Under the pieces are notes generated by a model. It worked only from the letters and a program-made list of their open reading frames with translations. It did not search any database and had not been told where the DNA came from. A program made the translations under genes and the position numbers. Shown here one piece after another: positions 19,369 to 54,827 of a DNA stretch of 64,000 nucleotides (position 1 is its first letter; each line of letters begins with the position of its first letter). This DNA comes from Nemertoderma westbladi. Its lineage: Eukaryota > Animalia > Xenacoelomorpha. Location: contig JAUCBJ010007063.1 of NCBI GenBank assembly GCA_032718475.1, positions 1-64,000 on the forward strand, written 5' to 3'.

Positions 19369-20648
19369 TGTAAAAGCTTCTGTGGGATATAACTGGCCCC
19401 TTTGCTTCGCAATCCAGTTTCCCCCTAGGCGCTGGAATACTCTAAAAGGGTTCTCTAACTGTATATATATTCCCCTCGCCCGCAAGGTACCGTTACAGGT
19501 GTTTTTAACGGACATAAAAGTCATTCTTCTATATACGTGTTTTAGCGGACATGGTAAGGCAAAAAACCCGCAATACGGCAAATACTTTTACACAGCTTAG
19601 CCGTGATGATTCAGATTACGACATCTAACAGCTGGTTGCTTAAATGGAAACAGCCATTGGACGCATGGTTCTTTGTTTGGCTTCAGCCAATCAGAGCGAT
19701 TTTCTCTGTCGATGTGGAGCTTTGAGCCGATCATACTGGGAGTGTTCAGTCTTACTGTTTTTTACTGATACTTTGTTGTTATTGCTGTCTAAGCCAGAAA
19801 CACCGGCTCTAGAGTTAATTGTTTTCATACTTTAAAAGAAACATTAGTAGGCTTAAATTATAGAGCGTATGACTGTTATCAGTTCAACTCAGTGCATAAC
19901 AGTGCATATCACTGTACATATCGGTTCATATCATATCTTAACCTACCGTCTTAACGTTTTGCTGTTGTCATATTTTATATCAGTTGATTGAATATTATCT
20001 GGAGAACATTTATAAAGAACCCAAATTTCCCAATTTTCTTGATACACTACAGGTTAGAGAGGCGGGTTATATATATAGCGATTGCGACTTATATTATTGT
20101 GGTGTGTATTGAATTTAATGCTATTTGATAAGCACTACATTGGTCCGTTGCTATTTTCTTTATATATGATAAAATTCATTGACGGTCGGCAAGTTAGTGA
20201 GCAGTATTGTGTGTTACCGGTAGTGTGCATGATTGTGACGGATAACTAAGCATTTCCTAAAGAATGCGCCTCATACGTGAATCTTAAGCCTTACCGACTT
20301 ACCGTTGTGATTAGTGTAAGTCATATCTCTGTTTACCTAGATAGAGCGCCACGTCCTAAAGGAACTGTTAATATTTCCCGAAAGTAAATAATATTAGTCA
20401 GAAATTAATTATTAACGATCAATCGAATAATACAATACAGTAAGCTTCACTGCAATAATAATTTAAGCCCTCAGAATCCAGTCTCCCGGGATTATCCAGC
20501 GGGTGAATGGACGCGCACTAGGCTGGCTTCTGCTAATGTTGTGTTTATTGGTATTAAATATTTGTCATCTTCTAAAGTATATTTATAAACCAAAAGACAT
20601 ATAAATTTTGGCAGGTTAAACTGCTAAAGGTCTTCAAAAGCGCGTACA
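19369..20648 (+). repeat. BEL/Pao 5' LTR
   Basis: TGTAAAAGCTTC...CGCGTACA. By eye it differs from the 3' LTR by one substitution (CCCCTCGCC vs CCCCTTGCC) and one 3-bp indel (TTTGATAAGCAC vs TTTGAGCAC). Confidence 0.97.
19685..19879 (+). promoter_or_regulatory. Candidate LTR promoter: CCAAT box, TATA-like TTTAAAAG and putative start near 19869
   Basis: AGCCAATCAG at ~19685, and TTTAAAAG at 19831-19838, about 30 nt upstream of the 11-mer complementary to the PBS position. The transcription start is inferred. Confidence 0.4.
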
Positions 20649-20659
20649 ATAACAGTCAT
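20649..20659 (+). promoter_or_regulatory. Non-tRNA primer-binding position, complementary to LTR 19869-19879 (candidate self-priming PBS)
   Basis: ATAACAGTCAT directly follows the LTR CA, with no TGG. Its reverse complement ATGACTGTTAT occurs at 19869-19879 and 34702-34712. Confidence 0.65.
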
Positions 20660-20714
20660 TGACTTTATTGCAGTAAGCAATAAAGTTGAAAGTACCGGTC
20701 AACCGGTAAACCTG

Positions 20715-20840
20715 AACCGGTACTTCTGTAGGTCAGTAGGCCCAACTGCCAGAACCGGTACTGCTGTAGGTCCGTAGGTCCAACTGCCAGAACCGGTACT
20801 TCTGTAGGTCCGTAGGCCCAACTGTCCTAACCGGTACTTC
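20715..20840 (+). repeat. ~38-bp tandem repeat (3+ copies) in the BEL leader
   Basis: AACCGGTACTTCTGTAGGTC(A/C)GTAGG(C/T)CCAACTGCCAG repeated. Confidence 0.85.
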
Positions 20841-21009
20841 CAGTATAAGTACATTAGTATTATTCGATTTTGATTATTGTATACTGGTAGGTCTTAGTAT
20901 TTAATCAGGGACTGCAGCCCTGGTTTTTTATTGAGATTTTACTCATTTCTGTCGGTTTTATTTACATGTAAGTTAATATTGAGCTGAAGACGTGTAAGTC
21001 TGCTCAGAT

Positions 21010-21590
21010 TGTTCAGATAATTGTAGGCTGAGCTGCTGTCTGACTGTTGTTGGGTTTGGAGAGATTACGGCGTGTGTAGAGTTTGTCTGATAAAGTGCCG
21101 TTAGTAAGTTGGGGCAGCCATATGCTGTAAGGTCAATCCCCTCTTAAAGAATAAGTCGTACTACCGTGTTAGAACGCATACTAACTAACTATTTCAGAAT
21201 CTGCATATACTGTAGTTTATTTAGGCTTGATCGTAGTCTGCCAGCGTTTTAGCCTGTGTTTGTTTGTGTGGTCTGTTCAGGTACCGTAATAGTTATTACT
21301 CAGATATTTTGTAGGCTGGATTGTTGTCTAGCTATTATTAGGTCTGAAGAGATTGCTGCTTGTGTAGAGTTTGTCTGATAAAGTGCCAGTTAGTAAGTTG
21401 GGGCAGTCATAACTGTAAGGTCAATCCCCTCTTAAAGAATAAGTCGTACTACCGTGTTAGAACGCATACTAACTAACCGTTTTGGAATCTGCACATACAG
21501 TAGTTTATTTAGGCTTGGTGGTAGTCTGCCAGCGTTTGGTTTGTATTTTGTTTGAGTATTCTGTACGGGTAGCGTAATATTTATTATTCA
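21010..21590 (+). repeat. ~288-bp direct duplication in the BEL leader
   Basis: TGTGTAGAGTTTGTCTGATAAAGTGCC at 21073 and 21361. Shared block CTGTAAGGTCAATCCCCTCTTAAAGAATAAGTCGTACTACCGTGTTAGAACGCATACTAACTAAC. Confidence 0.9.
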
Positions 21591-22873
21591 GAGTTTATGC
21601 GATTATTCGCAACATTCATGTCCCCAAGTTTATTCCTACAGTAATTGTGCTTGTTATACATACCGTTATAGTTAAATTAACCCCGGTACTACACGGGCTG
21701 CTTGGCGTAGGACAAGACTGGTGACTTTGTGCTCTGGTCACTCCAGCAGATGCCGTGGTTCTTTTAACTGTTCAAGTATATTTAACTACTGATTATTTGT
21801 TGTACCAGTACTTGTACCTAATTTAGGGTTTAGTGTACAGTGCTTTCCGAGAGTAATTAGTGTGTAGGCAGTATATTTGTGTTGTAAAGTGGTTGATAGG
21901 CACATTCGTTAGCTCTATTAACTTCCAGGTAGGAACACTCCGTGATACATAACGTAGTACCTATAGAGATACGGCTATAGGTCGTCAGGCGGTGGTATTT
22001 TCTTATCTGGACAGTGCAATATATTTACTACTACTTATTATTTTCAAATACCGTAGTACCCTGTCCGTTGTAATAACCAGAAATTCTAACCCTTTGTTAG
22101 ACTGGTTTGTAGACTTCCTGTAAAATTACCCTAAAAATCTCGTACGTAATATTTTGTTGTGTTTAATAAGAGATTTAATCTCACCCATATCGTAAGTAAT
22201 TTGTAGTATTAAGTAACTTAGGTAAATTAGAATTATCAGTTTTAGTGTCCCATAAATAGCACTTCACTGAGAGCGCACAGCTTCTGTGTAGTGACCCCCA
22301 GAAATAATAACATTTATTTCAAATATTGACAAAACCCATTTTAAACGGGTATATAAATATTATAAATCAACTCAAACGATTTATAAATAGTAGGCCTGCC
22401 ATACAACAACTAGGTCTCAATATCAGTTGGACTACTGCTTAAATAACGGTAATAAAGTAAGTTAAAGTAACCAAGTAACCCTAAAATATTCAGAAATTCA
22501 ATTATTCTAAAATAATTGACATACCGGTGTTTACCATAGGCTTATTATATTTATTTCTATAAATTTGAGCTGAAATCATACCGGTACTCTGTAATTAATT
22601 CTAGTTCATAATTATACTTATATATACTATCAGTGTAAGCTGTATACCGGTATTCACGATAGGCCTATTATATATTTATATATATCTGTGCTAAATTTAT
22701 ATACCGGTACTCTGTGACAAACCTAGTTTACAATACTTATATATACTATAAGTGTATACCAGTATTCTAATATACTGTAATAAATTAACGGTACTAGGCC
22801 AACGGTTATACTGAATTACTAGACTTGCTTTAACTGAAACTATAGCAGTAGACATTCAACTGTATAGCTAAAC

Positions 22874-25800
22874 ATGTCTGACACTCAGCAAAACCTGTCA
22901 GACAGTCTAATCGATACAACCATCTGTGACACAGATAGGAGTGTAGAGCGATTAAGAAAGGAGTTCAGTTCACCTCCTACTGCAAGAAAGGTCATCCCTC
23001 CAGTAGTATCAGACCCTAGGCTAATTCAACACCGTAGGTCTATCATAGGTACTCGAGCCCAAGTCAAACGGAACCAGGAAGCAGCTGTCCCACAGCAGCA
23101 ACAGCCTAGTCAAGAAACTTGTTCCCAGCGATCAGATAGCTCCAGTAGTTCGGATACTGTCGAGCTGACCCCCGAACGCGGAGTGCAGATGGCGGCTACA
23201 GCCTACTCGGACCCCCTTCTCACCCTTCCTGCCGCAGTGCTAACTACTATATTGATTGCGGTGGAGGAACATCAAGCTGATTGGGCGAGAAATAAGCGAG
23301 CGACCCAAGATAATTACGCGGGATACGCCAGGGAGGAATTGATGTCTATTGTCGAGTCACAATGGAACTTTCCCGGACCCGGACTCCCGTTAGATCTGTC
23401 CGAGGCTACTTGGGAAGATATACATAGGATGGGAGTGGCTAAAGATACGATGGATCCAGCTGTTTGGAAGAGGTCGGCAGCAGGATATGTGCAAGGGTTC
23501 TTCGGCTCTTTAGAGCGATTAGAAGAACAACTGTTTCGACAACCCCAAGGACCTCAAGAGCCGGAAGAGCTGCTTTATCAAGTACGCGAAAGAACCCTAC
23601 GTATTAGAATAATCCTATCAGCCTTTGAGGAAACTTCCAAAAGAAGACAGGACACGTCGCTGCAGGTTTCTGTTAAGACTTGGTTCCAGCGAGTAGGTCG
23701 CAAAGTGCAAGAAACGGACCAGTGGAAATCCCAGCTGTCTGAGAGACTAACTTATGAAGAACCAACCGATGCCACCCTTTCTGGAGTGGAAGGCGAAGAG
23801 ACCGCAGAGAGACCACGAACGAGAGACGCCATCGACATTTACCTATCCGACTATCAGCGATTCCTGGGAGACGAAGAGTTGAGGAGACGACTGTCTGGAC
23901 TTTCCCCCAATAGTGAAGGAACCCAGCGTGTGTTAGACTCAATCGATGCTGAGATGTTGGCGGCTAATCAAGCTGAATTTGATGAAAAACTCCGCCTCAC
24001 TAGAGTCCAAGAAGAACTAGTAAAGAAAAAACGGATAGAGGACAAAAAGGCAGTGGCAGCGGCGAAAGCGGCAGCGTCAGTAGAAGAGGCAAAAGCGGCA
24101 GCGGCAGTGGAAGCGGCAAAGGCAGTAGCAGCGGCAAAAGCAGCAGCGGCAGTGGAAAAGGCAGAAGCAAAAGCGGCAGCGGCAGCGAAAGCGGCAGCGG
24201 CAGCGAAAGCGAAAGCGGCAGAGGCAGTAGCAGAAGCAAATGCTGCAGCGACAGTGGAAGCAGCCAAAGCAGCAGCAGCAATAGCATTGGCAGATGCGGA
24301 ACAGAGAGCGTCTGAAGAGACCACCCAACTAGAGTTGGAGAATCTGCAAGAGACGCAAGACAACATAAATAAACAGTTAACTGCTAGTCACATGCAGATG
24401 ATGAGAAAATCTACTCCCAAACGCCAGGGCTATACTTCATCGGAGGAAAGCGAAACCACCGATCCTGAAGGCGGAGGAAATAGATCTCGTCTAAGCAGGC
24501 GTAGAAAAACATCTTACCGTCATAAATTGCCTGATTTGCCTCCAGCTGTTAGAAGACAACTAGCTAACACAGACTTAAGTAGTATAGAACCTACAGACCA
24601 AACTATTCATGTCAAAAGACTACCTACAATAGTTGATGAGCCTGAAATAATTAGGCCTGTCGTTCCCAAAGTCACTTCTGTGCTAGAGACCCCTGTACTT
24701 CCAGAGCTTAACTCTAAATTCCCTTTACACAGTACTACACTGCCTGTACCCAGTGGCACAGTCCATGCGAATATCCCTGTCCTGAGCATTGAGGGAGGAG
24801 TCAAAGATTTGTCTCCCGTCGTCCCGCGTCAGCCCGCTACAATGTTGGCGACTCCCGCTTCGGCGGTTGAGTGGGTAGATGAGGGACGGCGGGGGATGAA
24901 CCTCCTGCTCGGACAGATGCAGGAGACTGTCCACCAGCTTAAGGGAACAGTAAGGGAAGGTAGGGCAGAATTGCAAGAAGTGCAGCAAAGTATCGCGCTG
25001 GAATGCGACAAATTAGTCAATATACAAAAGGGCATACCAATACCCCCTGTAACATTGTGTCAACCTGTTAGGTCTGAAGTATTACATGCGCAAGGTGTGG
25101 AGCCTACACGCATCTATACTGCTAGTGAAGTAGAAACTCCTATAGCCAACCCTATTAAGGGTGATTATAAACCTGTTGTTAATGATATTCCCTATAGACC
25201 TGATAATGATCCGAGAAATTTATATACCGATAATTCGATATTAAATAACACGATGGCCCAAGAAAGCTTTACGCGTCAGATGGCTAGAACAGAAGCCCGC
25301 CAAGCGGTTAAAGTAGGAGAGATCGTCAAATTCAATGGAGACGAAATGAAATGGTTACCTTTCAACGAATATTACAAAGACAGCATACAGAACTCTGTGC
25401 TATCTAACGGAGAGAAACTTAGGTTCCTCATCAAGTGTTTGGAAGGACCTCCTAAGATAATGGCGTTAAAGTTTATTGGACATCCAGATGGATTAAGACA
25501 AGTTTGGGATACATTAAACATCAGGTATGGTAACAAAGATAACATAGCTAAGTATTTGTATGCAAAATTAGTAGCCCCCCGACACTTCCTTAGTAGCGGG
25601 ATTATAGAGTTTTCCGATGAAATTCAGGAAATCTGTAGACAATTGGACTGGTTAGGTAAGTCTCATGAATATCAGAGTTCCATGGTTATTGGAGCCGTAG
25701 TCTCTACTTTACCAAAGGGTGGAGTATGTACACGCTGGGACAAGAAAGTGTTGTACATGAATGAACAACAACGACGAAGTCCTACCATGGCGGATCTCAT

Positions 25801-28800
25801 GTCCTTCTTAGATGGTGAGGTAAAACTACAACTCATCAAGCAGTCCAGAGAGAAAACATCGGAAAATAAGGTAAGTGAGAAACCCGCTTCTAGGAGAAGA
25901 GTAACACCGGTGTGTTACACAGACGACGGCGAAAGCCAAGCTTCTCAAGAAGAAGACAGCGGGAAAGACACCGAACGATCTTACTACGTTGACAAAACCT
26001 CAAAAGATGTAAGTAAATACAAGGCTCGAAACAACGATAGGAGAGAACAGGTTGCTAAGACCCCTCCTCAGTCTCCTAACAGAATGCACCGAAGAAAACC
26101 CGAAGAAAGAACGAGAGTGCATCAAGTTACCCAAGGTAAAGTAAGTAACATAAAACTGAACTGTGCGCTGTGCGACGGGACCCACCGTTTGAGTGCGTGT
26201 GCGGAATTTCTAAAGAAATCCCTTGTAGACAGACGTACAGTTGTGTGGGACAAGCGGTTATGCTGTAATTGCCTCAGACCAGGACACCAACGGCGAACCT
26301 GTTACTCCGACATAAAGTGTGCAAAGTGTGGCGCGAAACATCACATCTTGTTACACAGTGAGTTCGAACGAGACAAACAGAGTCAGGTAAGTGAGCCCGA
26401 ACTACATGTCCAATTCAGTGATGTAAACGACACTGATCAGGAGTCTGAGATGGAAGGATTCTATACTGACGAATTCTCCGACGCCAACGAATCCTGTTAT
26501 CTAATCAATACCGCAGTGTATCGAGCACTTACTTATGAAAAGGACACCACCAATGAGTTCCCCCCAACAACTTTTGCCAAACAACCCTCTTGGAAAGCTC
26601 CAACTTCCAACGTAGGAATCAGAGAATTTCCTGTAGTGCAAGTAAGAATTCATGGTACTCACCACAGTTACATAGTGAACGCACTCCTTGATTCCGGCAG
26701 CACAGGAACATTCATAGATCAAGAATTAGCCGAAGACATCTTTGCTGGACAACCCAAATTCCGGACAAAATTGAATATGTCAGGAATTATGCAGGTTTGG
26801 AAATCTACCCTAACGGCAGATTACTACGTAGGTGTGTTGTCCACTCCCCAGGATAAGTTAGGAGTACAAGGAATAAGGTCGGTAAAAATGGTGGCTATAA
26901 AGAACTTCGCTACTACTCAAGCAGACCTTTATAATTGGGACGAGGATGAGAGCATCCAACATCTTAAGATACCTCGGTTCCAGACAGATTATCCTGGAGT
27001 GCAAATACTCATCGGCCAAAACGCGCACGAGGCGCTCGAAACATTGGAGAAACGGCCTGCTCAACCGCAGCCACTGCAAACCTATGCGGTAAGAACTAGA
27101 GTAGGTTGGTACTTTACTGGCCCTTCCCGCAGGACTCTCGAAGAGAGAATGCCACAAGAACGAGTAGATCATGTGAGCGATTGGAGCGAGGAGAGCAGTG
27201 AGGTGGACGAACTAACTGAGGGAACACCATACTCCTCAGATAACGATGACACTTATCAACTCTTCGATGAGGATAACACCATAGACTTACTTACAGAAAA
27301 CCAAACTTGGAAAGATCAGGTGAACCTATGTCAACTGATTCACCCATCGGAACCCATCGCTTACAATGACGAACTCAACGATGAGATAGAGCGCTGCAAC
27401 GCTAGAACTCGGGACGAACTAGCCGTACGATTCTTTACTCAGGAACTGGTAGAGCCCAATTCGTATGATAAGGCTCTATCGATAGAAGAAGAAAGAGCCA
27501 AGCAAATCCAGGAAACAACTACACGTTTTTTAAAAGACCAAGGTAGGTATGAAATCGGCCTCCCATTTCGAAAACGAGAACCTAGATTTATAAATAACAG
27601 ACCCTTGGCAGAGAAAAGAATCGCTCAATTACATCGACGCCTTACAGCTAATGCTTCAGCGAAAGAAATGTACCAAACTCAGCTGAAGAAATTTATAACA
27701 AAGGGATACGCGGAGCGAGTACCGGAAGGAACACCAGTGACTGAGAGAACGTATTACTTAACACATCATTACGTTCCCAAACCCGGTAAGCCCCATGAAG
27801 TACGAGTCGTATTCGATGGCTCTGCTCTATATATGGGCCAATCCCTTAATTCCGAGTTGTTACCAGGACCCAATTTACTCCAATCTTTGTTGGGAATACT
27901 TTTGAGATTAAGACAATATTCCATCGCGTTCGCTTCCGATATCGAAGGAATGTTCTTACAAGTCAAGGCGCTGGAGAGAGATAGAGACAGCCTGAGATTT
28001 CTGTGGTGGCCTGAAGGAGACCTCAACCAGAAACCGGTAGAGTACTGGATGACCATCCAGGCTTTTGGGATCATATCTAGCCCTTCCAACGCCTGCTCCG
28101 TAGTGCGAACCACTGCGAATGACAACAGAGACTCCTTCTCAAAGGAAGTGATAGACAATATAAAACGTAATATATACATGGACGACAATTTAAGCTCCCT
28201 TCCATCAGTAGAAGAAGCCATAGCTGTCGCGAAAGGAACGGTAGAGTGTTTGAAAAGAGGTGGATTTCGACTAACGAAATTCACTAGCAACTCCCGTGAG
28301 TTTCTGGAAGCCATACCGGTAGAAGACCGCGGAGCGAAAGATCTAGACTTAATAAAGGATGATCTTCCTGAAACCAAGACGCTAGGCTTGAAGTGGGACA
28401 CTGAAAGAGACATCCTGTTTTTTCAGTTAAAACAGCGAGATAATCCAGTTCGGACCAAACGGATTTGTTTAAGTATCCTGAGCACTTATTTCGACCCATT
28501 GGGATTTATTAGCCCAGTTATATTGATTGCTCGGAGTTTAGTACAACAGATGTGGCTTGAAAACCACTCATGGGACGATCCGCTTAAGGGAGAATTGTTG
28601 AAGAAATGGATGAAATGGGAAGATTCTCTACCTGCCATCGAGAACTTTATAATTTCCCGTGCATATTTTGGCCATGTTCTTCCTACGTATTCCTATCAAC
28701 TCCATGTGTTTGGAGACGCCAGCGACATGGGAATAGGTATAGTAGCATATCTGCGAGTCGAAACTCCGGATGGAATCAAGGTCGCCTTGGTTACCTCTAA

Positions 28801-29923
28801 GGCACTGATTAACAACAAGTTAAAGGTTCCTCGAGCGGAGTTAAAAGCGGCTTTATACGCTACAGCCATCGGCCGGAACGTAACGGAACAAATCGATTAC
28901 CCACTGGAGAAAACGGTTTATTGGACCGACGCTTTACTGGTGTTGGAATATCTAACCAATGAAGTCTGTCAGTTCAGCGTTTTTGTTACTAACAGGGTAG
29001 CTATTATTCTTAGTCGCACAAAGATAGATCAATGGAGACATTGCCCTGGTACGATTAATCCAGCCGATATCGCCTCCAGGGGAGCAACTCCACAGGAACT
29101 GATAGATACTCCAGATTGGTTGGGTGGACCCGACTTCCTGAGCAAGGAAGAGGACGAATGGCCTCCTCACCTTACTACGGCGGAAATTAGACAAGCCAAG
29201 GGAGCGGAGACCGTCAAACCAAAAACCCGGGCGAGTAAATCGAAGTTATTTAAACCGACTATCGATCTATCTGTATTACATGTTTCCGGAAACGATGATT
29301 TGGATCCACAATCCCTCGCTATAAATAAGTCTGTTGCGGAAATTCGAGATAGAGATTGGAAATCTGGAATACCAGACGTCTCGCAAGGAATCTCACCCCT
29401 GCTGCAGAGAGCGATGCATCACTACAGTTCCTGGAATCGGCTCTGTAAAGCCGTCACATATTTAAAGAGATGCTTTCATCATCAATACTCCAGGGCGAAG
29501 ACCACTAGTGATAACGCTCCATTGACATCTGCACAAGTTCATGTTATTAAAAACTTACCTAAATATAAGGTATCTGACAGTTTTCTAAAGGAGAAAATTA
29601 GTCACCAGGAGCATGAAGAGACCAATAAACAGATACTGAGACTCCTGCAATGCTATGAGGATTCCGAAAAGTATTTCCTGTTGTTGAGAAATCCGCAGAT
29701 GCGCTTAAGGGATCGATTCTCTAGCACAATGATAGATGGGTTAATACGTGTTGGAGGAAGGCTCACCAATGCACCCTTATCCTTTGACACTAAATTCCCC
29801 ATACTCATTAGAAATCTTGAAGTACAAATCAAGATGATTGTAGATGTTCACAGTAAGCTTTATCATGCTGGAAGAGAACGAGTTCTTAGCGAAATTCGAA
29901 CTCGCTATTATTTTGATAAGTAG
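22874..29923 (+). CDS. gag-pol: BEL/Pao Gag-Pol polyprotein (gag, protease, RT, RNase H, integrase N-terminus)
   Basis: Gag core KFNGDEMKWLPF...KLRFLIKCLEG; three knuckles CALCDGTHRLSAC, CCNCLRPGHQRRTC, CAKCGAKHHILLH; protease LLDSGS; RT SDIEGMFLQV and YMDD; RNase H LHVFGDAS, PRAELKAA, YWTDA; integrase HSKLYH. The frame breaks at ~29911-29914. Confidence 0.95.
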   Translation: MSDTQQNLSDSLIDTTICDTDRSVERLRKEFSSPPTARKVIPPVVSDPRLIQHRRSIIGTRAQVKRNQEAAVPQQQQPSQETCSQRSDSSSSSDTVELTPERGVQMAATAYSDPLLTLPAAVLTTILIAVEEHQADWARNKRATQDNYAGYAREELMSIVESQWNFPGPGLPLDLSEATWEDIHRMGVAKDTMDPAVWKRSAAGYVQGFFGSLERLEEQLFRQPQGPQEPEELLYQVRERTLRIRIILSAFEETSKRRQDTSLQVSVKTWFQRVGRKVQETDQWKSQLSERLTYEEPTDATLSGVEGEETAERPRTRDAIDIYLSDYQRFLGDEELRRRLSGLSPNSEGTQRVLDSIDAEMLAANQAEFDEKLRLTRVQEELVKKKRIEDKKAVAAAKAAASVEEAKAAAAVEAAKAVAAAKAAAAVEKAEAKAAAAAKAAAAAKAKAAEAVAEANAAATVEAAKAAAAIALADAEQRASEETTQLELENLQETQDNINKQLTASHMQMMRKSTPKRQGYTSSEESETTDPEGGGNRSRLSRRRKTSYRHKLPDLPPAVRRQLANTDLSSIEPTDQTIHVKRLPTIVDEPEIIRPVVPKVTSVLETPVLPELNSKFPLHSTTLPVPSGTVHANIPVLSIEGGVKDLSPVVPRQPATMLATPASAVEWVDEGRRGMNLLLGQMQETVHQLKGTVREGRAELQEVQQSIALECDKLVNIQKGIPIPPVTLCQPVRSEVLHAQGVEPTRIYTASEVETPIANPIKGDYKPVVNDIPYRPDNDPRNLYTDNSILNNTMAQESFTRQMARTEARQAVKVGEIVKFNGDEMKWLPFNEYYKDSIQNSVLSNGEKLRFLIKCLEGPPKIMALKFIGHPDGLRQVWDTLNIRYGNKDNIAKYLYAKLVAPRHFLSSGIIEFSDEIQEICRQLDWLGKSHEYQSSMVIGAVVSTLPKGGVCTRWDKKVLYMNEQQRRSPTMADLMSFLDGEVKLQLIKQSREKTSENKVSEKPASRRRVTPVCYTDDGESQASQEEDSGKDTERSYYVDKTSKDVSKYKARNNDRREQVAKTPPQSPNRMHRRKPEERTRVHQVTQGKVSNIKLNCALCDGTHRLSACAEFLKKSLVDRRTVVWDKRLCCNCLRPGHQRRTCYSDIKCAKCGAKHHILLHSEFERDKQSQVSEPELHVQFSDVNDTDQESEMEGFYTDEFSDANESCYLINTAVYRALTYEKDTTNEFPPTTFAKQPSWKAPTSNVGIREFPVVQVRIHGTHHSYIVNALLDSGSTGTFIDQELAEDIFAGQPKFRTKLNMSGIMQVWKSTLTADYYVGVLSTPQDKLGVQGIRSVKMVAIKNFATTQADLYNWDEDESIQHLKIPRFQTDYPGVQILIGQNAHEALETLEKRPAQPQPLQTYAVRTRVGWYFTGPSRRTLEERMPQERVDHVSDWSEESSEVDELTEGTPYSSDNDDTYQLFDEDNTIDLLTENQTWKDQVNLCQLIHPSEPIAYNDELNDEIERCNARTRDELAVRFFTQELVEPNSYDKALSIEEERAKQIQETTTRFLKDQGRYEIGLPFRKREPRFINNRPLAEKRIAQLHRRLTANASAKEMYQTQLKKFITKGYAERVPEGTPVTERTYYLTHHYVPKPGKPHEVRVVFDGSALYMGQSLNSELLPGPNLLQSLLGILLRLRQYSIAFASDIEGMFLQVKALERDRDSLRFLWWPEGDLNQKPVEYWMTIQAFGIISSPSNACSVVRTTANDNRDSFSKEVIDNIKRNIYMDDNLSSLPSVEEAIAVAKGTVECLKRGGFRLTKFTSNSREFLEAIPVEDRGAKDLDLIKDDLPETKTLGLKWDTERDILFFQLKQRDNPVRTKRICLSILSTYFDPLGFISPVILIARSLVQQMWLENHSWDDPLKGELLKKWMKWEDSLPAIENFIISRAYFGHVLPTYSYQLHVFGDASDMGIGIVAYLRVETPDGIKVALVTSKALINNKLKVPRAELKAALYATAIGRNVTEQIDYPLEKTVYWTDALLVLEYLTNEVCQFSVFVTNRVAIILSRTKIDQWRHCPGTINPADIASRGATPQELIDTPDWLGGPDFLSKEEDEWPPHLTTAEIRQAKGAETVKPKTRASKSKLFKPTIDLSVLHVSGNDDLDPQSLAINKSVAEIRDRDWKSGIPDVSQGISPLLQRAMHHYSSWNRLCKAVTYLKRCFHHQYSRAKTTSDNAPLTSAQVHVIKNLPKYKVSDSFLKEKISHQEHEETNKQILRLLQCYEDSEKYFLLLRNPQMRLRDRFSSTMIDGLIRVGGRLTNAPLSFDTKFPILIRNLEVQIKMIVDVHSKLYHAGRERVLSEIRTRYYFDK

Positions 29924-31055
29924 AGCTCTGAACCAAGTTCTTAGGAACTGCATACCCTGTAGGAAAGCATTCAGTAGGCCTTTAACACAGCGAGAGGCAG
30001 AATTACCTAGGGAACGAGTAAGCTTCTATGAACCACCTTTTACTAATACTGGTGTAGATTTATTTGGCCCTATTGAAGTATATTGTGCGAGGACTATAGT
30101 CAAGAGATGGTGTGTCATCTTCGTGTGCATGACTTGCAGAGCCATCCATCTCGATATGGTGAACGATCTATCTACCAACAGTTTCGTCTTAAGTTTACGA
30201 CGACAGATCGCTCGCTTCGGTACGAGTAATACCATGAGATCGGACAAGGGAACGAACTTCATTGGTGCCAACAACGAAATACAGGCTTACGTAAAGGACT
30301 GGAACCAAAGACAGGTGGATGACCAGCTAAGGATAACAGCGTCTAGCTGGACCTTCAACGCCGCCGACGCCCCTTGGTGGGGAGGAAGTTGGGAGAGATT
30401 AATTAGAAGTGTTAAGACCGCATTTCACTTTATAGTGCCATGCCGTGCATATCTCACCGACGAACTTTTGCGGACGTTAATGGAGGAAATAGCTGCCTAT
30501 CTCAACGAGAGACCGCTTATGCCAGTCTCATCGAGTCCCGATTCCCTGGAAGCGCTAACACCTGCGCACTTCCTACTGAAGAAACCGGTAGCCATGCTCC
30601 CACGATCGGAGATTGCCGACGGAGACGAATACTGCCGTCGAACTTGGCAACTTATGCAGTTGCTATCCCGTCGTTTCGCTGACCATTTCGAGAAACATTA
30701 CCTGCCCACACTACAACTTCGAACTAAGTGGTTTGCGCAGCAAGAAAACGTCAGCGCCGGAGATATGGTACTTATTGTAGATCCAGACCTCCCACGTAAA
30801 CGGTGGCAGACAGGTCGTATCATCAAGACCCATATCTCGGAGGATGGTTTAGTGCGTTCAGTAGAACTCATCGTTATGCGGCGTAACTTCAAGAAGCCCG
30901 GCATAATCTTTGAGACGCAACAACTCAACCGCCCAGTTGGTCGTTTATGTTTACTGGAAAGAGACAGAGAACTCTCTGGAAACTATGGAAGACAAGACAC
31001 TCTTCCCACGACCACCTCCCTAATTCCTCAAACATCTAGGGACTCCCAAACGTGA
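29912..31055 (+). CDS. pol: BEL/Pao integrase core and C-terminus (frameshifted continuation of pol)
   Basis: CIPC completes the HHCC motif; GVDLFGP, SDKGTNF and GGSWERLI form the DDE triad; GLVRSVEL and RPVGRLC are typical BEL C-terminal motifs. Confidence 0.93.
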
Positions 31056-31570
31056 TACGTCTGGAGTGGGTGTATGACTATGTTATTTATCTATTTTATT
31101 ACATTTTATATGCGAACTTTATTATGTACTTTATTATAATCGTTTTTATTCAATTTTTATTTAGTAGAATGTTATTTTAGGGATTATTTAGTAGATTAGT
31201 GCAATATATTAGTGTTTATTACGTACGTAATTACTTGCAATATATATTTAGTGCGACGGCGAGAAATAATTTTTCTCTTTCCTTACTGTCCGTAACATAT
31301 TATAAATACGTGACTACAGTAAGATGAAATACCCGTACTTCTTAAAGTACCATAAAGCCACTACTATATTCAAGTATTATTGGTAGGCAGAGTATTAGGA
31401 ATGCAAAGTTCAGATCCTCGTGTCTCGGCTAAACCAAGCTCTGGGTAGACCTTGGAAACGACTTGCCTCTTCACACTGACATTGCTTCGTGCGATATTGC
31501 TCTTCTACCTTATAACAAATAATACATATAGTAGCGTGATGTCCCTCTAACAGTAGCGTAAATCGCAAAT

Positions 31571-31860
31571 AAATCTGTTAAACTTTTTGACCATCTGTAA
31601 TTCTAGTCGATTAAGATATCGTGGCACCCACCGATATACTTGAAAGACAAATTCTAGAATCAGTGGTTAACGTCCCCAGACAAGTTCTGGAATAAATCGG
31701 TGCTCATCCTAAATATTAATTTAATATTTATTAAAATCTGTAAAATCCCGATCCTTTAAAATTTCTATTCAATTAAGATATCGCAGTATTTACCGATATT
31801 CTTAGAAGGACTATTTTATAGAATTAAGGATCCTAAGTCCCCAGATATGCTCTGGAATAA
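31571..31860 (+). ncRNA. Duplicated structured-RNA module (two ~125-nt copies) with covarying stems
   Basis: Copy 1 pairs TTGACCA/TGGTTAA, TTCTAG/CTAGAA, ATATCG/CGATAT and CCAGA/TCTGG. Copy 2 pairs GATCCTT/AAGGATC, TTCTAT/ATAGAA, ATATCG/CGATAT and CCAGA/TCTGG. Function unknown. Confidence 0.55.
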
Positions 31861-32673
31861 AATTTGTGTCAATTTAACATCAAATAATAAAATTCACGGG
31901 AATAAATTTAAATTCATATTCAAATGAATTTCATAAATTGTCATTTTGTGTAATTTATAACATTCCCAAAATTCCAGTAATTAATAGATCATGGGAGCGG
32001 AGATTCATATTGAGTGTACTAGAGTGCGAGAATCTCCAACATATAGTCAATAGCCGATAAAATTTATAAAATCATGCATAAAGAGGATATTGACAATTAA
32101 AGAATTACTATTAAATAACATCCCAGATCTGTATGCATGAGAATTACCCTAATTCTACCGCTAGTTTTCCATAATGTCACCATGGCAACACCCACGCTAG
32201 AATTAGAAGCAAGTTAAAAGAACAATAGAAAGCTTGTCCCATTGCATAGCATAGAGAATATAGCACACTGTTAGTATCCAAGGATACACAGTAATAAAGT
32301 GACATTCTGGAAGGCACTGACTAACGGACAAATGGCCTGTATGTGTACAATTGGTGACAGTTGTGTGGAATTTGTGCGTTTGTAGGTGAATGTTACTGCT
32401 AAGGTGTGTTTACAGTAGCTAGTCGCAATTGTGAAAGTAACCCAACTCTCCTATAGAAAGAACCTAAAGTGGATTCAAGCCTTTGGGACGGACAGTGGAG
32501 TGACTTGTGCCGGTTATCGTTGTCGTACTGTTGCTACATGTTGGCGTAAACACCGCGACAACGGTACATCGGCGCTGAGGATCCCACTGTCCGGGGGCAA
32601 AGAGAGGTGGGCAGCGACGTCTGCTCGCCTAAACATAAACTCATTTCGATATTAACAAACTCAGATAGCAGAT

Positions 32674-33072
32674 ATGACGGAGTTGATAGAAGATGATCTT
32701 GGTATCAAGGAGCGATATACTCTACCTTTGCAAGCATTTGTGGATAGCTTAATACGCGGTGAAGCCGATCCAACCATTACGGAGGACGATGGTCGTTATA
32801 TCGAACCGCCGATGTCCCAAGAGCAACTTGCGCGTGAATTGGACTATCGAAAATCCACCGCGCGCTATACGCATCGTAATAGTACGTATATGGACTTCCT
32901 AACTACCGGCCATCCTATCGATTTACATGATACGGACGATGTAGACACCGAAAGGGAAATGGTTCTATTTAAATATCATACCCAGCGGAGTCGGAACGAT
33001 AAACCGAGAATAGATCATGAAAATTCTATTCGTAACAGACTGGGAAGACGAACCAATATGCCTAGAATCTGA
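32674..33072 (+). CDS. BEL accessory ORF A (132 aa, acidic then basic, unknown function)
   Basis: ATG-initiated, coding-like composition, and overlaps ORF B by 56 nt. No motif recognised. Confidence 0.5.
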   Translation: MTELIEDDLGIKERYTLPLQAFVDSLIRGEADPTITEDDGRYIEPPMSQEQLARELDYRKSTARYTHRNSTYMDFLTTGHPIDLHDTDDVDTEREMVLFKYHTQRSRNDKPRIDHENSIRNRLGRRTNMPRI

Positions 33073-34123
33073 GGAGATTCAGCCTATCACGCCCCGGAAC
33101 AGCGACAACGACTATATCATCGAATGGTATCAAGGTCCACAGTGTCTCACTGCGTACGATTATCGACACGCCAACTATGTTTCTAGGCAACGTTGTCGAT
33201 TATGCGCATCGAGAGACCACGATACGCCCATGGACACCAATGTCCGCTGTTCCTATTTCCAAGAACAACCAACTATGGAAATTTATTGCGCATATTGCAG
33301 ACTCAATAACTTGCATATCTTTGCTGTTTGCCCTCAATTTATGACTCAATGTCACCATTGTCAACTAAAGGGACATGCCAGTTTCGATTGCCCTTTTAAT
33401 CACGACTTGGAAAGCGTAGATGAAATGATCACACTACGTTACATCAGAGCTTGGGAAGCGAACGCTGATTTACATTGTGATTCGCGCCATCGCTATTATC
33501 CCGGACGCGCTTATGAAGGAGTTTATGCGTTCCATCCTTATCTCTTCGCCTCGGTCGAACAGAAATCACGCATATCGAGTTACGAGCTAATAAAGCGCGT
33601 CGGAGAATGTATTTCAACCAAATTCGTACGCAAATTTCTCAGGAGTGTTAATCCTAGCGACCTTCATTCCTATAACTTAATCAATTATATCCGTCAGGAT
33701 CCGGACTATGGAGACTTATTTGTTAACTCACACTCAGAGTTACAGGAAGTATATCGGCGGCCTTACGAATACCGAGCCCGCGAACGCGAGTTAGAAAGAA
33801 CCATTAAACTCCGGAGGTTTCTAACCGCCTATGGTCCACCCACGGCCCTTGTTCAGACCACGCGTAAAGGACCCGTCAGAGCGGCTGTCTTGAAACGAGC
33901 TCTCAAAGCCGTTAGACCCCTCTCACCTGATGTCGATGTCAATCAACCCGGTACTTCGACTGGCGGATACACCGACCATAATCCTACACCCTCTGATGCA
34001 ATCATATTGCACCCTTCACCTCGGAGTTATAGCCCTCCTTGTAAAGTGGCTCGCCCCAAAGAGAAAAGGACTCTGGCTAGCTTTAAAAAATTGCGTAAAC
34101 GCCGTCCGCGCAAGAAAGACTAA
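33017..34123 (+). CDS. BEL accessory ORF B (368 aa): zinc-knuckle protein with basic C-terminus
   Basis: CRLCASRDH, CAYCRLNNLHIFAVC and a canonical CX2CX4HX4C (CHHCQLKGHASFDC, 33350-33391); C-terminal KKLRKRRPRKKD. No signal peptide or TM helix, so it is not env. Confidence 0.8.
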   Translation: MKILFVTDWEDEPICLESEEIQPITPRNSDNDYIIEWYQGPQCLTAYDYRHANYVSRQRCRLCASRDHDTPMDTNVRCSYFQEQPTMEIYCAYCRLNNLHIFAVCPQFMTQCHHCQLKGHASFDCPFNHDLESVDEMITLRYIRAWEANADLHCDSRHRYYPGRAYEGVYAFHPYLFASVEQKSRISSYELIKRVGECISTKFVRKFLRSVNPSDLHSYNLINYIRQDPDYGDLFVNSHSELQEVYRRPYEYRARERELERTIKLRRFLTAYGPPTALVQTTRKGPVRAAVLKRALKAVRPLSPDVDVNQPGTSTGGYTDHNPTPSDAIILHPSPRSYSPPCKVARPKEKRTLASFKKLRKRRPRKKD

Positions 34124-34190
34124 CTGTTTAGAGTATTTACGTATATTAGAAACTGTGATTTTTGTATATTAATAGACTCAAATCCCATTT

Positions 34191-34201
34191 TCTGGGAGCG
34201 G
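34191..34201 (+). promoter_or_regulatory. Putative polypurine tract of the BEL element (weak)
   Basis: TCTGGGAGCGG immediately precedes the TG of the 3' LTR. Confidence 0.5.
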
Positions 34202-35478
34202 TGTAAAAGCTTCTGTGGGATATAACTGGCCCCTTTGCTTCGCAATCCAGTTTCCCCCTAGGCGCTGGAATACTCTAAAAGGGTTCTCTAACTGTATATA
34301 TATTCCCCTTGCCCGCAAGGTACCGTTACAGGTGTTTTTAACGGACATAAAAGTCATTCTTCTATATACGTGTTTTAGCGGACATGGTAAGGCAAAAAAC
34401 CCGCAATACGGCAAATACTTTTACACAGCTTAGCCGTGATGATTCAGATTACGACATCTAACAGCTGGTTGCTTAAATGGAAACAGCCATTGGACGCATG
34501 GTTCTTTGTTTGGCTTCAGCCAATCAGAGCGATTTTCTCTGTCGATGTGGAGCTTTGAGCCGATCATACTGGGAGTGTTCAGTCTTACTGTTTTTTACTG
34601 ATACTTTGTTGTTATTGCTGTCTAAGCCAGAAACACCGGCTCTAGAGTTAATTGTTTTCATACTTTAAAAGAAACATTAGTAGGCTTAAATTATAGAGCG
34701 TATGACTGTTATCAGTTCAACTCAGTGCATAACAGTGCATATCACTGTACATATCGGTTCATATCATATCTTAACCTACCGTCTTAACGTTTTGCTGTTG
34801 TCATATTTTATATCAGTTGATTGAATATTATCTGGAGAACATTTATAAAGAACCCAAATTTCCCAATTTTCTTGATACACTACAGGTTAGAGAGGCGGGT
34901 TATATATATAGCGATTGCGACTTATATTATTGTGGTGTGTATTGAATTTAATGCTATTTGAGCACTACATTGGTCCGTTGCTATTTTCTTTATATATGAT
35001 AAAATTCATTGACGGTCGGCAAGTTAGTGAGCAGTATTGTGTGTTACCGGTAGTGTGCATGATTGTGACGGATAACTAAGCATTTCCTAAAGAATGCGCC
35101 TCATACGTGAATCTTAAGCCTTACCGACTTACCGTTGTGATTAGTGTAAGTCATATCTCTGTTTACCTAGATAGAGCGCCACGTCCTAAAGGAACTGTTA
35201 ATATTTCCCGAAAGTAAATAATATTAGTCAGAAATTAATTATTAACGATCAATCGAATAATACAATACAGTAAGCTTCACTGCAATAATAATTTAAGCCC
35301 TCAGAATCCAGTCTCCCGGGATTATCCAGCGGGTGAATGGACGCGCACTAGGCTGGCTTCTGCTAATGTTGTGTTTATTGGTATTAAATATTTGTCATCT
35401 TCTAAAGTATATTTATAAACCAAAAGACATATAAATTTTGGCAGGTTAAACTGCTAAAGGTCTTCAAAAGCGCGTACA
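34202..35478 (+). repeat. BEL/Pao 3' LTR
   Basis: Near-identical copy of 19369-20648, followed by the TSD CATAC. Confidence 0.97.
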
Positions 35479-38400
35479 CATACAGGGTGTATATAGTGAG
35501 AGAATGGCGTGGTATGATGAGTATAGGAAGGTGTGGCCATACAGGGTGTGTAGAGTGAGAGAATGGCGTGGTATGATGAGTATAGGAAGGTGTGGCCATA
35601 CAGGGTGTGTAGAGTGAGAGAATGGCGTGGTATGATGAGTATAGGAAGATGTGGCCATACAGGGTGTGTAGAGTGAGAGAATGGCGTGGTATGATGAGTA
35701 TAGGAAGGTGTGGCCATACAGGGTGTGTAGAGTGAGAGAATGGCGTGGTATGATGAGTATAGGAAGATGTGGCCATACAGGGTGTGTAGAGTGAGAGAAT
35801 GGCGTGGTATGATGAGTATAGGAAGCTGTGGCCATACAGGGTGTGTAGAGTGAGAGAATGGTGTGGTATGATGAGTATAGGAAGGTGTGGCCATACAGGG
35901 TGTGTAGAATGAGAGAATGGCGTGGTATGATGAGTATAGGAAGATGTGGCCATACAGGGTGTGTAGAGTGAGAGAATGGCGTGGTATGATGAGTATAGGA
36001 AGGTGTGGCCATACAGGGTGTGTAGAGTGAGAGAATGGCGTGGTATGATGAGTATAGGAAGGTGTGGCCATACAGGGTGTGTAGAGTGAGAGAATGGCGT
36101 GGTATGATGAGTATAGGAAGATGTGGCCATACAGGGTGTGTAGAGTGAGAGAATGGCGTGGTATGATGAGTATAGGAAGGTGTGGCCATACAGGGTGTGT
36201 AGAGTGAGAGAATGGTGTGGTATGATGAGTATAGGAAGGTGTGGCCATACAGGGTGTGTAGAGTGAGAGAATGGCGTGGTATGATGAGTATAGGAAGATG
36301 TGGCCATACAGGGTGTGTAGAGTGAGAGAATGGTGTGGTATGATGAGTATAGGAAGGTGTGGCCATACAGGGTGTGTAGAGTGAGAGAATGGCGTGGTAT
36401 GATGAGTATAGGAAGATGTGGCCATACAGGGTGTGTAGAGTGAGAGAATGGCGTGGTATGATGAGTATAGGAAGGTGTGGCCATACAGGGTGTGTAGAGT
36501 GAGAGAATGGCGTGGTATGATGAGTATAGGAAGGTGTGGCCATACAGGGTGTATAGAGTGAGAGAATGGTGTGGTATGATGAGTATAGGAAGGTGTGGCC
36601 ATACAGGGTGTGTAGAGTGAGAGAATGGCGTGGTATGATGAGTATAGGAAGGTGTGGCCTTACAGGGTGTGTAGAGTGAGAGAATGGCGTGGTATGATGA
36701 GTATAGGAAGGTGTGGCCATACAGGGTGTGTAGAGTGAGAGAATGGTGTGGTATGATGAGTATAGGAAGGTGTGGCCATACAGGGTGTGTAGAGTGAGAG
36801 AATGGCGTGGTATGATGAGTATAGGAAGGTGTGGCCATACAGGGTGTGTAGAGTGAGAGAATGGCGTGGTATGATGAGTATAGGAAGGTGTGGCCATACA
36901 GGGTGTGTAGAGTGAGAGAATGGTGTGGTATGATGAGTATAGGAAGGTGTGGCCATACAGGGTGTGTAGAGTGAGAGAATGGCGTGGTATCATGAGTATA
37001 GGAAGGTGTGGCCATACAGGGTGTATAGAGTGAGAGAATGGCGTGGTATGATGAGTATAGGAAGGTGTGGCCATACAGGGTGTGTAGAGTGAGAGAATGG
37101 CGTGGTATGATGAGTATAGGAAGGTGTGGCCATACAGGGTGTATAGAGTGAGAGAATGGCGTGGTATGATGAGTATAGGAAGGTGTGGCCATACAGGGTG
37201 TGTAGAGTGAGAGAATGGTGTGGTATGATAAGTATAGGAAGGTGTGGCCATACAGGGTGTGTAGAGTGAGAGAATGGTGTGGTATGATGAGTATAGGAAG
37301 GTGTGGCCATACAGGGTGTGTAGAGTGAGAGAATGGCGTGGTATGATGAGTATAGGAAGGTGTGGCCATACAGGGTGTGTAGAGTGAGAGAATGGCGTGG
37401 TATGATGAGTATAGGAAGGTGTGGCCATACAGGGTGTGTAGAGTGAGAGAATGGTGTGGTATGATAAGTATAGGAAGGTGTGGCCATACAGGGTGTGTAG
37501 AGTGAGAGAATGGTGTGCTATGATGAGTATAGGAAGCTGTGGCCATACAGGGTGTGTAGAGTGAGAGAATGGCGTGGTATGATGAGTATAGGAAGGTGTG
37601 GCCATACAGGGTGTGTAGAGTGAGAGAATGGTGTGGTATGATGAGTATAGGAAGGTGTGGCCATACAGGGTGTGTAGAGTGAGAGAATGGCGTGGTATGA
37701 TGAGTATAGGAAGGTGTGGCCATACAGGGTGTGTAGAGTGAGAGAATGGTGTGGTATGATGAGTATAGGAAGGTGTGACCATACAGGGTGTGTAGAGTGA
37801 GAGAATGGCGTGGTATGATGAGTATAGGAAGGTGTGGCCATACAGGGTGTGTAGAGTGAGAGAATGGTGTGGTATGATGAGTATAGGAAGGTGTAGCCAT
37901 ACAGGGTGTGTAGAGTGAGAGAATGGTGTGGTATGATGAGTATAGGAAGGTGTGGCCATACAGGGTGTGTAGAGTGAGAGAATGGTGTGGTATGATGAGT
38001 ATAGGAAGGTGTGGCCATACAGGGTGTGTAGAGTGAGAGAATGGTGTGGTATGATGAGTATAGGAAGGTGTGGCCATACAGGGTGTGTAGAGTGAGAGAA
38101 TGGTGTGGTATGATGAGTATAGGAAGGTGTGGCCATACAGAGTGTGTAGAGTGAGAGAATGGCGTGGTATGATGAGTATAGGAAGGTGTGGCCATACAGG
38201 GTGTGTAGAGTGAGAGAATGGCGTGGTATGATGAGTATAGGAAGGTGTGGCTATACAGGGTGTGTAGAGTGAGAGAATGGTGTGGTATGATGAGTATAGG
38301 AAGGTGTGGCCATACAGGGTGTGTAGAGTGAGAGAATGGCGTGGTATGATGAGTATAGGAAGGTGTGGCCATACAGGGTGTGTAGAGTGAGAGAATGGCG

Positions 38401-53000: not shown

Positions 53001-54827
53001 ACCTGGTTCTGTATGAGGGTATAGATCGGTGGAGAGACGCTCATACCTGGTTCTGTATGAGGGTATAGATCGGTGGAGAGACGCTCATGCCTGGTTCTGT
53101 ATGAGGGTATAGATCGGTGGAGAGACGCTCATACCTGGTAAAGTAGGAGGGTATAGATCGGTGGAGAGACGCTCATACCTGGTTCTGTATGAGGGTATAG
53201 ATCGGTGGAGAGACGCTCATACCTGGTAAAGTATGAGGGTATAGATCGGTGGAGAGACGCTCATACCTGGTTCTGTATGAGGGTATAGATCGGTGGAGAG
53301 ACGCTCATACCTGGTAAAGTATGAGGGTATAGATCGGTGGAGAGACGCTCATACCTGGTTCTGTATGAGGGTATAGATCGGTGGAGAGAGGCTCATACCT
53401 GGTTCTGTATGAGGGTATAGATCGGTGGAGAGACGCTCATACCTGGTAAAGTATGAGGGTATAGATCGGTGGAGAGACGCTCATACCTGGTTCTGTATGA
53501 GGGTATAGATCGGTGGAGAGACGCTCATAGCTGGTAAAGTATGAGGGTATAGATCGGTGGTGAGACGCTCATAGCTGGTAAAGTATGAGGGTATAGATCG
53601 GTGGAGAGACGCTCATACCTGGTAAAGTATGAGGGTATAGATCTGTGGAGAGACGCTCATACCTGGTAAAGTATGAGGGTATAGATCGGTGGGGAGACGC
53701 TCATACCTGGTAAAGTATGAGGGTATAGATCGGTGGAGAGACGCTCATACCTGGTAAAGTATGAGGGTATAGATTGGTGGAGAGACGCTCATACCTGGTT
53801 CTGTATGAGGGTATAGATCGGTGGAGAGACGCTCATACCTGGTAAAGTATGTGGGTATAGATCGGTGGAGAGACGCTCATACCTGGTTCTGTATGAGGGT
53901 ATAGATCGGTGGAGAGACACTCATACCTGGTTCTGTATGAGGGTATAGATCGGTGGAGAGACGCTCATACCTGGTAAAGTATGATGGTATAGATCGGTGG
54001 AGAGACGCTCATACCTGGTAAAGTATGAGGGTATAGATTGGTGGAGAGACGCTCATACCTGGTTCTGTATGAGGGTATAGATCGGTGGAGAGACGCTCAT
54101 ACCTGGTAAAGTATGATGGTATAGATCGGTGGAGAGACGCTCATACCTGGTTCTGTATGAGGGTATAGATCGGTGGAGAGACGCTCATACCTGGTAAAGT
54201 ATGTGGGTATAGATCGGTGGAGAGACGCTCATACCTGGTTCTGTATGAGGGTATAGATCGGTGGAGAGACACTCATACCTGGTTCTGTATGATGGTATAG
54301 ATCGGTGGAGAGACGCTCATACCTGGTAAAGTATGTGGGTATAGATCGGTGGAGAGACGCTCATACCTGGTAAAGTATGAGGGTATAGATTGGTGGAGAG
54401 ACGCTCATACCTGGTAAAGTATGAGGGTATAGATCGGTGGAGAGACGCTCATACCTGGTAAAGTATGAGGGTATAGATTGGTGGAGAGACGCTCATACCT
54501 GGTAAAGTATGAGGGTATAGATCGGTGGAGAGACGCTCATACCTGGTAAAGTATGTGGGTATAGATCGGTGGAGAGACGCTCATACCTGGTAAAGTATGA
54601 GGGTATAGATCGGTGGAGAGACGCTCATACCTGGTAAAGTATGTGGGTATAGATCGGTGGAGAGACGCTCATACCTGGTTCTGTATGAGGGTATAGATCG
54701 GTGGAGAGACACTCATACCTGGTTCTGTATGATGGTATAGATCGGTGGAGAGACGCTCATACCTGGTAAAGTATGTGGGTATAGATCGGTGGAGAGACGC
54801 TCATACCTGGTTCTGTATGATGGTATA
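44089..54827 (+). repeat. 44-bp satellite, left arm (~244 units)
   Basis: Unit GTATGAGGGTATAGATCGGTGGAGAGACGCTCATACCTGGT(AAA/TCT). Confidence 0.98.

Follow-up and report, generated by a model that had tools for sequence, protein, structure and literature searches.

The locus described here raises the question of what a BEL/Pao retrotransposon encodes between its integrase and its 3' long terminal repeat (LTR), a position in which the extra gene of such elements is usually envelope-like (env-like). The DNA analysed is a stretch of 64,000 nucleotides (nt) from Nemertoderma westbladi (contig JAUCBJ010007063.1 of assembly GCA_032718475.1, positions 1 to 64,000 of the forward strand; hereafter the window), and it contains an LTR retrotransposon of 16113 nt at 19369-35481, identified as BEL/Pao by self-comparison, alignment and Pfam analysis. 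An earlier note, made from the letters alone, had reported two overlapping sense open reading frames (ORFs) of 132 and 368 amino acids (aa) between integrase and 3' LTR, here named ORF A and ORF B, and had proposed that they are accessory genes and not env. Both ORFs are present. Very probably they constitute a non-env accessory gene that is under selection and serves the element. A fuller reading, in which they are real BEL/Pao frames selected throughout the family and likely specify a single soluble protein with zinc knuckles, which would bind the RNA of the element and act in the nucleus, is preferred tentatively, with somewhat less than even confidence. The features of this part of the element are as follows.

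31056..32673, + strand: AT-rich spacer lacking long open frames, G+C content 0.34 (three-frame translation)
32674..33072, + strand: ORF A, 132 aa (ORF list, translation)
33014..33072, + strand: overlap of ORF A and ORF B, frame B being +1 to frame A (ORF list)
33014..34123, + strand: open frame of ORF B, 369 codons from stop to stop (ORF list, translation)
33194..33391, + strand: three Cys/His knuckles of ORF B (regular-expression scan)
34085..34120, + strand: basic tail KKLRKRRPRKKD, residues 357-368 of ORF B (translation)
34194..34201, + strand: purine-rich run GGGAGCGG adjoining the 3' LTR, by its position likely the polypurine tract (sequence read)
34202..35481, + strand: 3' LTR (self-blast, alignment)

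Measured from stop to stop, the frames extend over 32656-33072 (A) and 33014-34123 (B), and from the first ATG over 32674-33072 and 33017-34123. They overlap by 59 nt, the ATG of ORF A directly follows a stop codon, and the stop codon of ORF B lies 78 nt ahead of the 3' LTR. The 369-codon frame of ORF B is longer than any obtained in 2000 shuffles of 31056-34201, for which the maximum was 191 codons and the mean 90.

Copies of the element were compared using contigs, not whole copies, from four public runs belonging to four studies (X1, X3, X4 and X5). The organism label is the same for three of these runs and another for the fourth; that X4 is RNA is no more than a guess, and this run covers the LTR and the spacer too. 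The earlier note had considered that the ORFs might be confined to this copy. This is not the case, as all 30 depth bins of the ORF region (32541-34201) are covered in four of the four runs, as is every bin of the element. The contigs on this region number 12017 in X1, 3547 in X3, 67 in X4 and 291 in X5; those of X1 are 80-100% alike and compare with 122553 contigs of the same run on the whole element. The element thus belongs to a repeat family of very high abundance, in which the ORF region is included. Nested insertion of another element was considered as the source of the region and rejected, there being no terminal repeats and no joints that skip the region, with depth continuous across it. 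As a separate observation, the + strand of 32541-34201 shows an excess of pyrimidine over purine transitions in X1 (77 for C>T and T>C vs 40 for A>G and G>A), while the transitions of the whole element are balanced (448 pyrimidine vs 434 purine); the imbalance in the ORF region may be an effect of codon degeneracy.

Selection was assessed with the best-supported 40 of the 412 variable places in 32541-34201, using the share of synonymous differences and not a formal ratio of nonsynonymous to synonymous rates; about 25% synonymous is expected under neutrality, at a transition:transversion weight of 2. Outside the overlap, 17 of the 23 differences in ORF B are synonymous (codon positions 5/2/16; P=1.2e-6 vs 25%), as are seven of the eleven in ORF A (codon positions 3/2/6; P=0.0076). 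The positive control, gag-pol plus integrase, gave 18 of 27 (codon positions 6/4/17; P=6e-6), and when the same 23 sites of ORF B were read in the other two frames, as a negative control, only 6 and 4 were synonymous. The synonymous shares match those of the gag-pol control; the constraint on both ORFs therefore appears equal to that on gag-pol, and both show purifying selection of the same strength. Insertions and deletions (indels) were counted in the longest pieces. Twenty-one of these lie wholly inside ORF B and hold 767 substitutions over 4996 nt with only two gap letters, which form a compensating pair six bases apart.

The protein features described in the earlier note were largely borne out. 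ORF B possesses three Cys/His clusters, at residues 60-78 (CX2CX4HX9C), 91-105 (CX2CX5HX4C) and 112-125 (CX2CX4HX4C), the last being a canonical CCHC knuckle, and it ends in the basic tail KKLRKRRPRKKD. These knuckles are, as had been claimed, distinct from those of Gag: gag-pol has its own at residues 1099 and 1132, and the blastp match near them reaches only E=1.2. Neither ORF has a transmembrane or signal-like segment, the maximal 19-residue Kyte-Doolittle mean being 0.83 for ORF B and 0.49 for ORF A, and no env family of Pfam was matched at E<=10, so that their description as not env-like holds. ORF A is acidic (isoelectric point, pI, 5.35) and lacks Cys, and in ORF B the head is acidic (pI 4.05) while the C-terminus is basic (pI 10.35). 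Judged from its composition, the tail may be a putative nuclear localisation signal or an arginine-rich RNA-binding motif. Residues 44-65 of ORF A (32800-32870) gave a sub-threshold match to HTH_20 (E 0.08; 13.4 bits vs a cut-off of 27), and a long helix of low confidence is placed over the same residues by a single-sequence model.

Homology searches returned little for either protein. Pfam analysis of ORF B at E<=10 gave two sub-threshold knuckle matches only, including zf-CCHC_3 at 12.1 bits vs a cut-off of 27, and its best hit in the PDB had an E of 0.79. Two matches of ORF B among 1.84 billion representative proteins were to short stretches of long repetitive proteins and were judged spurious. 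Among 120 BEL/Pao polyproteins, ORF B had no match at E<=10 and the best for ORF A was E=0.22. In the feature space of the Atlas, the nearest neighbours of ORF B are proteins with zf-CCHC or AIR2-like domains; their scores of 0.79-0.86 lie below 0.9 and serve as leads only. The helical part of ORF B (residues 131-300) gave no usable match. Secondary structure, taken from a model of unusably low confidence, is predicted as short strands over the knuckles followed by helices at 134-297. The earlier note had also allowed for a decayed, nested gag. This candidate was rejected, since the best blastp match to the element's own gag-pol is E=0.04 over 58 residues, at 1436-1488 and hence outside the gag domain and its knuckles, and no Pfam capsid family was found. 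As far as these searches reach, ORF A and ORF B form an orphan pair to which no function can be transferred by homology. Their orphan status may partly reflect sampling, because the nearest relatives of the pol are themselves only 31-42% identical, and a blank search for a fast-evolving accessory protein is weak evidence of uniqueness.

The ATG of ORF B at 33017 is private to the copy in the window: nearly all other depth has C at 33018 (X1, 334069 of 337880; X3, 258522 of 261848; X4, 24.2 of 24.2; X5, 3018 of 3018), which changes the codon to ACG. The T of the window copy is a change of the kind that would be expected from CpG decay. The difference is synonymous in frame A, and the site therefore tells nothing about selection for a start in frame B. 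The next ATG of frame B encodes residue 72, within the knuckle region, and synonymous differences were found upstream of it, at 33112 and 33185; frame B is therefore constrained upstream of Met72. Among 12 of the 13 indel places, none with a share of at least 10% falls between 32951 and 33092, and for this reason the +1 offset of A and B is considered to be family-wide and not a private frameshift. A one-letter difference in length soon after the stop of ORF A occurs in a minority of contigs (one of high depth in X5, two in X1 and one in X4); it would set the downstream part of B in frame A, in contigs that do not show the state of the ORF A stop.

Since the ATG is private, the constraint begins upstream of the next one and the offset is shared by the family, frame B must be entered between 33014 and approximately 33112, and in most copies no AUG is available there for this. 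ORF B probably depends on ORF A, by recoding or splicing, or else on a non-AUG start. The suggestion that A and B are a single frameshifted or spliced gene has consequently gained weight, with a single product being given slightly less than an even chance. The acceptor-like strings mentioned in support of splicing do exist, GTTTGTAG at 32378-32385 and GTTTACAG at 32408-32415, both in the spacer (31056-32673). They fall within 32347-32539, and loose contig ends occur at 32346 and 32540; other subfamilies therefore carry different sequence at these strings. None of the runs recorded as RNA contains the stretch. No joint specific to RNA was seen, as all joints listed for X4, the run guessed to be RNA, were listed for the DNA runs also. 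Rfam analysis gave no match at the overlap and only two chance-level matches elsewhere.

In the preferred reading, frame B would probably be reached through ORF A, either by +1 recoding or by splicing at a point in approximately 33014-33112, because frame B is constrained upstream of the ATG of residue 72. The product, which would be made from a subgenomic RNA, would measure approximately 480 aa and consist of an acidic head, three knuckles, a helical part and the basic tail. With its knuckles and its Arg/Lys tail, such a protein may bind single-stranded nucleic acid and be imported into the nucleus. Its most likely role would be to assist the RNA of the element itself after transcription, in its export, stabilisation or choice for packaging; as a specific assignment, a nuclear RNA-binding helper is conceivable though doubtful.

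A number of results weigh against this reading. The nuclear location, the binding of nucleic acid and a Rev/Tat-like or anti-silencing role are deduced from motifs only, and the canonical knuckle itself scores below the Pfam cut-off (zf-CCHC, PF00098; 8.3 bits vs 20.8). No relatives of ORF B were found in a word search of 5.8 billion proteins, nor among metagenome or viral contigs; ORF A was likewise without relatives in the word search, with a best E of 1.1 in the PDB and only the sub-threshold HTH_20 match in Pfam. Single-sequence AlphaFold2 models are unusable, with a mean predicted local distance difference test (pLDDT) score of 36 for ORF B and 52 for ORF A. Concerning recoding, no known +1 slippery heptamer was recognised by eye in 33014-33072, and folding of the RNA around the overlap does not exceed what shuffled sequences give (z of -0.49 to +0.76). 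ORF A is also less clean than ORF B: its seven pieces among those listed hold 161 substitutions and four gap letters over 1077 nt, and a deletion of 209 nt lies inside it in one contig of X3 and one of X4. Finally, the selection test draws on 40 of 412 variable places, in contigs and not in whole copies.

The alternative that survives best is that two separate proteins are made, ORF A from the AUG at 32674 and ORF B by reinitiation or from a codon other than AUG, namely the ACG at 33017, which has A at position -3; the function would be the same or split between them. ORF A opens with an ATG immediately behind a stop, ACG stands at the head of frame B in most copies, and neither a slippery motif nor a stimulatory RNA fold for frameshifting was found. 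The tolerance of ORF A for indels and for the 209-nt deletion, beside a clean ORF B, likewise fits two units under different constraint. ACG starts are generally inefficient, however, and the change at 33018 is uninformative on a frame B start; separate proteins are regarded as rather unlikely.

It is less likely again that the product is a second structural protein resembling a nucleocapsid, which would be carried in the particle or act as a chaperone of reverse transcription, and not a nuclear regulator. CCHC-type knuckles are a hallmark of retroelement nucleocapsids, and the Atlas neighbours of ORF B, as leads, point the same way; yet the gag of this element already has knuckles that ORF B does not resemble, and the basic tail of ORF B would appear more like an import signal.

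A captured fragment of a host or foreign gene, carried as a passenger, without a role for the element and open only through the youth of the family, is considered very unlikely. LTR elements that have taken up extra ORFs in this way are documented in rotifers (PMC5408684, as far as its available text goes). The composition of the region may also hint at another origin for ORF A and ORF B: the observed/expected ratio of CpG reaches 1.58 for ORF A and 1.29 for ORF B, compared with 0.76-1.0 for other parts of the element and 0.48 for the left flank, and CGN makes up 36 of the 48 Arg codons in the A/B region vs 102 of 205 in gag-pol (Fisher P=0.002). A passenger would decay, whereas here the excess of synonymous differences is as large as in gag-pol among copies diverged by up to approximately 20% and ORF B is nearly free of indels; nor was a donor gene found among the 1.84 billion representatives. 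Chance open frames or an artefact of assembly, which the private ATG at 33017 and a break in frame between pol and integrase, also private to this copy, might have suggested, are effectively refuted by a 369-codon frame that exceeds all 2000 shuffles, by the presence of the frames in four runs from four studies and by their strong third-position bias.

The remainder of the element, whose features are given below, identifies it as a member of the BEL/Pao superfamily.

19364..19368, + strand: target-site duplication CATAC, left copy (read directly)
19369..20648, + strand: 5' LTR, 1280 nt, beginning TG and ending CA (self-blast; ends by alignment)
20649..22873, + strand: leader of approximately 2.2 kilobases (kb) with tandem repeats and without a long ORF (self-comparison, ORF list)
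22874..29923, + strand: gag-pol open frame, also given as 22868-29923 (ORF list, Pfam, knuckle scan)
29844..31055, + strand: integrase part (DUF5641), in a frame different from that of pol (ORF list, Pfam)

The two direct LTRs (19369-20648 and 34202-35481) are of 1280 nt each and are 99.5-99.7% identical by self-blast, their exact ends having been set by alignment; both begin with TG and end with CA. The element is flanked by a 5-bp target-site duplication, CATAC, read directly at 19364-19368 on the left and 35482-35486 on the right. Its insertion has split an array of a 59-bp satellite (97% match; 17213-19368 and 35479-44083), and a second array, of 44-bp units, was observed at 44093-54827 and 60294-64000. 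The element is thus located in satellite DNA, which is probably heterochromatic. A primer-binding site complementary to tRNA-Arg or tRNA-Gly is a character of BEL/Pao elements; no transfer RNA gene was found within the 64-kb window. Pfam analysis of the element gave Peptidase_A17 (E=4e-36), DUF1759 of gag (E=8.7e-12) and DUF5641 of the integrase C-terminus (E=1.7e-20), all above the curated cut-offs. The pol was matched by 351 BEL/Pao-type polyproteins at E<=1e-20 that share this set of Pfam families, the best being only 31-42% identical, with named hosts that include sea cucumber, fishes, corals, sea urchins, barnacle and schistosomes. BEL/Pao genomes are given as 4.2-10 kb with LTRs of 0.2-1.2 kb in the available text of two sources (PMC8742986, PMC3118150), and the present element, at 16113 nt with LTRs of 1280 nt, exceeds both ranges. 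Its membership of BEL/Pao stands despite its size because the size range is not a defining character.

Within gag-pol, DUF1759 occupies residues 822-950 and the Pao Peptidase_A17 residues 1863-2021, with the Gag knuckles at 1099 and 1132. An N-terminal extension of approximately 800 residues precedes DUF1759 (region 22868-25300) and includes an Ala/Lys-rich repeat at approximately 24046-24279. The gag-pol frame alone, at 2351 aa, is longer than all 120 of the BEL/Pao relatives listed (median 1874 aa, maximum 2312 aa). The leader (20649-22873) is also unusually long, at 2.2 kb, and contains units of 38 nt at 20714-20840 and of 288 nt at 21013-21592. The frame break between pol and integrase, in 29844-29923, was compared with one spanning contig from each of the four runs, and the difference in length is not a multiple of three; because the contigs of all four runs differ in length there, the break is taken to be private to this copy. 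Internally deleted forms of the element were also observed among DNA contigs: one lacks approximately 1.78 kb of pol (27243-29025; X1, X4 and X5), a second lacks approximately 1.71 kb (29210-30920; X4 and X5), and one contig of X5 joins the 5' LTR (20052) to 32476, just upstream of ORF A, so that ORF A and ORF B are kept and gag-pol is lost. These forms may be non-autonomous derivatives.

BEL/Pao is the least studied of the LTR superfamilies, and members with a third gene include Tas of Ascaris and Cer7 of Caenorhabditis elegans. The present element resembles these in belonging, by Pfam, to the same superfamily and in having an extra gene between integrase and 3' LTR. It differs from them in the absence of any transmembrane segment, signal or env family in that gene, in the two overlapping frames and in its size of 16.1 kb with 1.28-kb LTRs. 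Some members of the Belpaoviridae have been described as carrying an env-like gene (PMC8742986), and gag, pol and an env-like gene are the only genes named for BEL/Pao in the available parts of PMC8742986 and PMC3118150. No non-env third gene in BEL/Pao was found described in a full-text literature search, subscription journals and Repbase entries lying outside its scope. Among other LTR retrotransposons, those of bdelloid rotifers, which are Ty3/gypsy-like, possess non-env ORF3s typically expressed from spliced messages (PMC5408684), and additional ORFs have been described in plant elements (PMC7264820), including ORF0 of Retrosat2 (PMC3485330). ORF A and ORF B share with these, as far as the available text of the sources shows, the character of family-specific extra ORFs downstream of pol that are often orphans and sometimes captured. 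On the same sources, the rotifer ORF3s carry GDSL, DEDDy or env domains, whereas the gene described here is a zinc-knuckle orphan, in BEL/Pao and not in a Ty3/gypsy-like or plant element.

Comparison can also be made with regulators, nucleic-acid-binding proteins and recoded genes outside this group. Complex retroviruses encode regulators 3' of pol, namely Rev, Rex, Tat and the Tas/Bel1 of foamy viruses. Like Rev, Rex and Tat, ORF A and ORF B lie 3' of pol and are small, non-structural and soluble with an Arg/Lys-rich motif, a likeness of layout only, and no sequence similarity between the two groups was found. To our knowledge, regulators of the Rev/Rex/Tat/Tas type lack CCHC knuckles. Multiply spliced messenger RNAs and RNA targets have been demonstrated for the Rev/Rex/Tat type, whereas ORF A and ORF B are known from their sequence. 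ORF B resembles zf-CCHC and AIR2-type proteins in its one exact CX2CX4HX4C knuckle and two near-canonical ones, and differs from them in Pfam scores far below the cut-offs and in a helical region of approximately 170 residues after the knuckles that has no match. Because these residues match nothing, ORF B is a candidate for a new nucleic-acid-binding fold. Genes with a programmed +1 frameshift include the gag-pol of Ty1 and Ty3, antizyme and prfB. The A/B pair is similar to these in the +1 position of its downstream frame, in a short overlap ending at the upstream stop and in the lack of an AUG of its own for the second frame in most copies; unlike them, it has no recognised heptamer or detected RNA fold, and its product is a predicted one. 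That ORF B is without a start codon in most copies makes this retrotransposon a concrete and testable case of recoding, of splicing or of initiation at a codon other than AUG.

It is improbable, though consistent with the above, that this BEL/Pao lineage has become a 'complex' retroelement with a bipartite accessory gene, whose start-less zinc-knuckle part would be reached by +1 recoding or splicing and would act as a nuclear RNA-binding regulator independent of the Rev/Tat type; if so, such a regulator may help to explain the enormous copy number of the family. Extra ORFs in other elements are already known, and what is new here is a selected pair of orphan accessory genes, of non-env type, in a giant BEL/Pao element. 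The existence of such a pair would mean that accessory functions also arise in BEL/Pao elements, as they do in complex retroviruses and in the elements of rotifers and plants.

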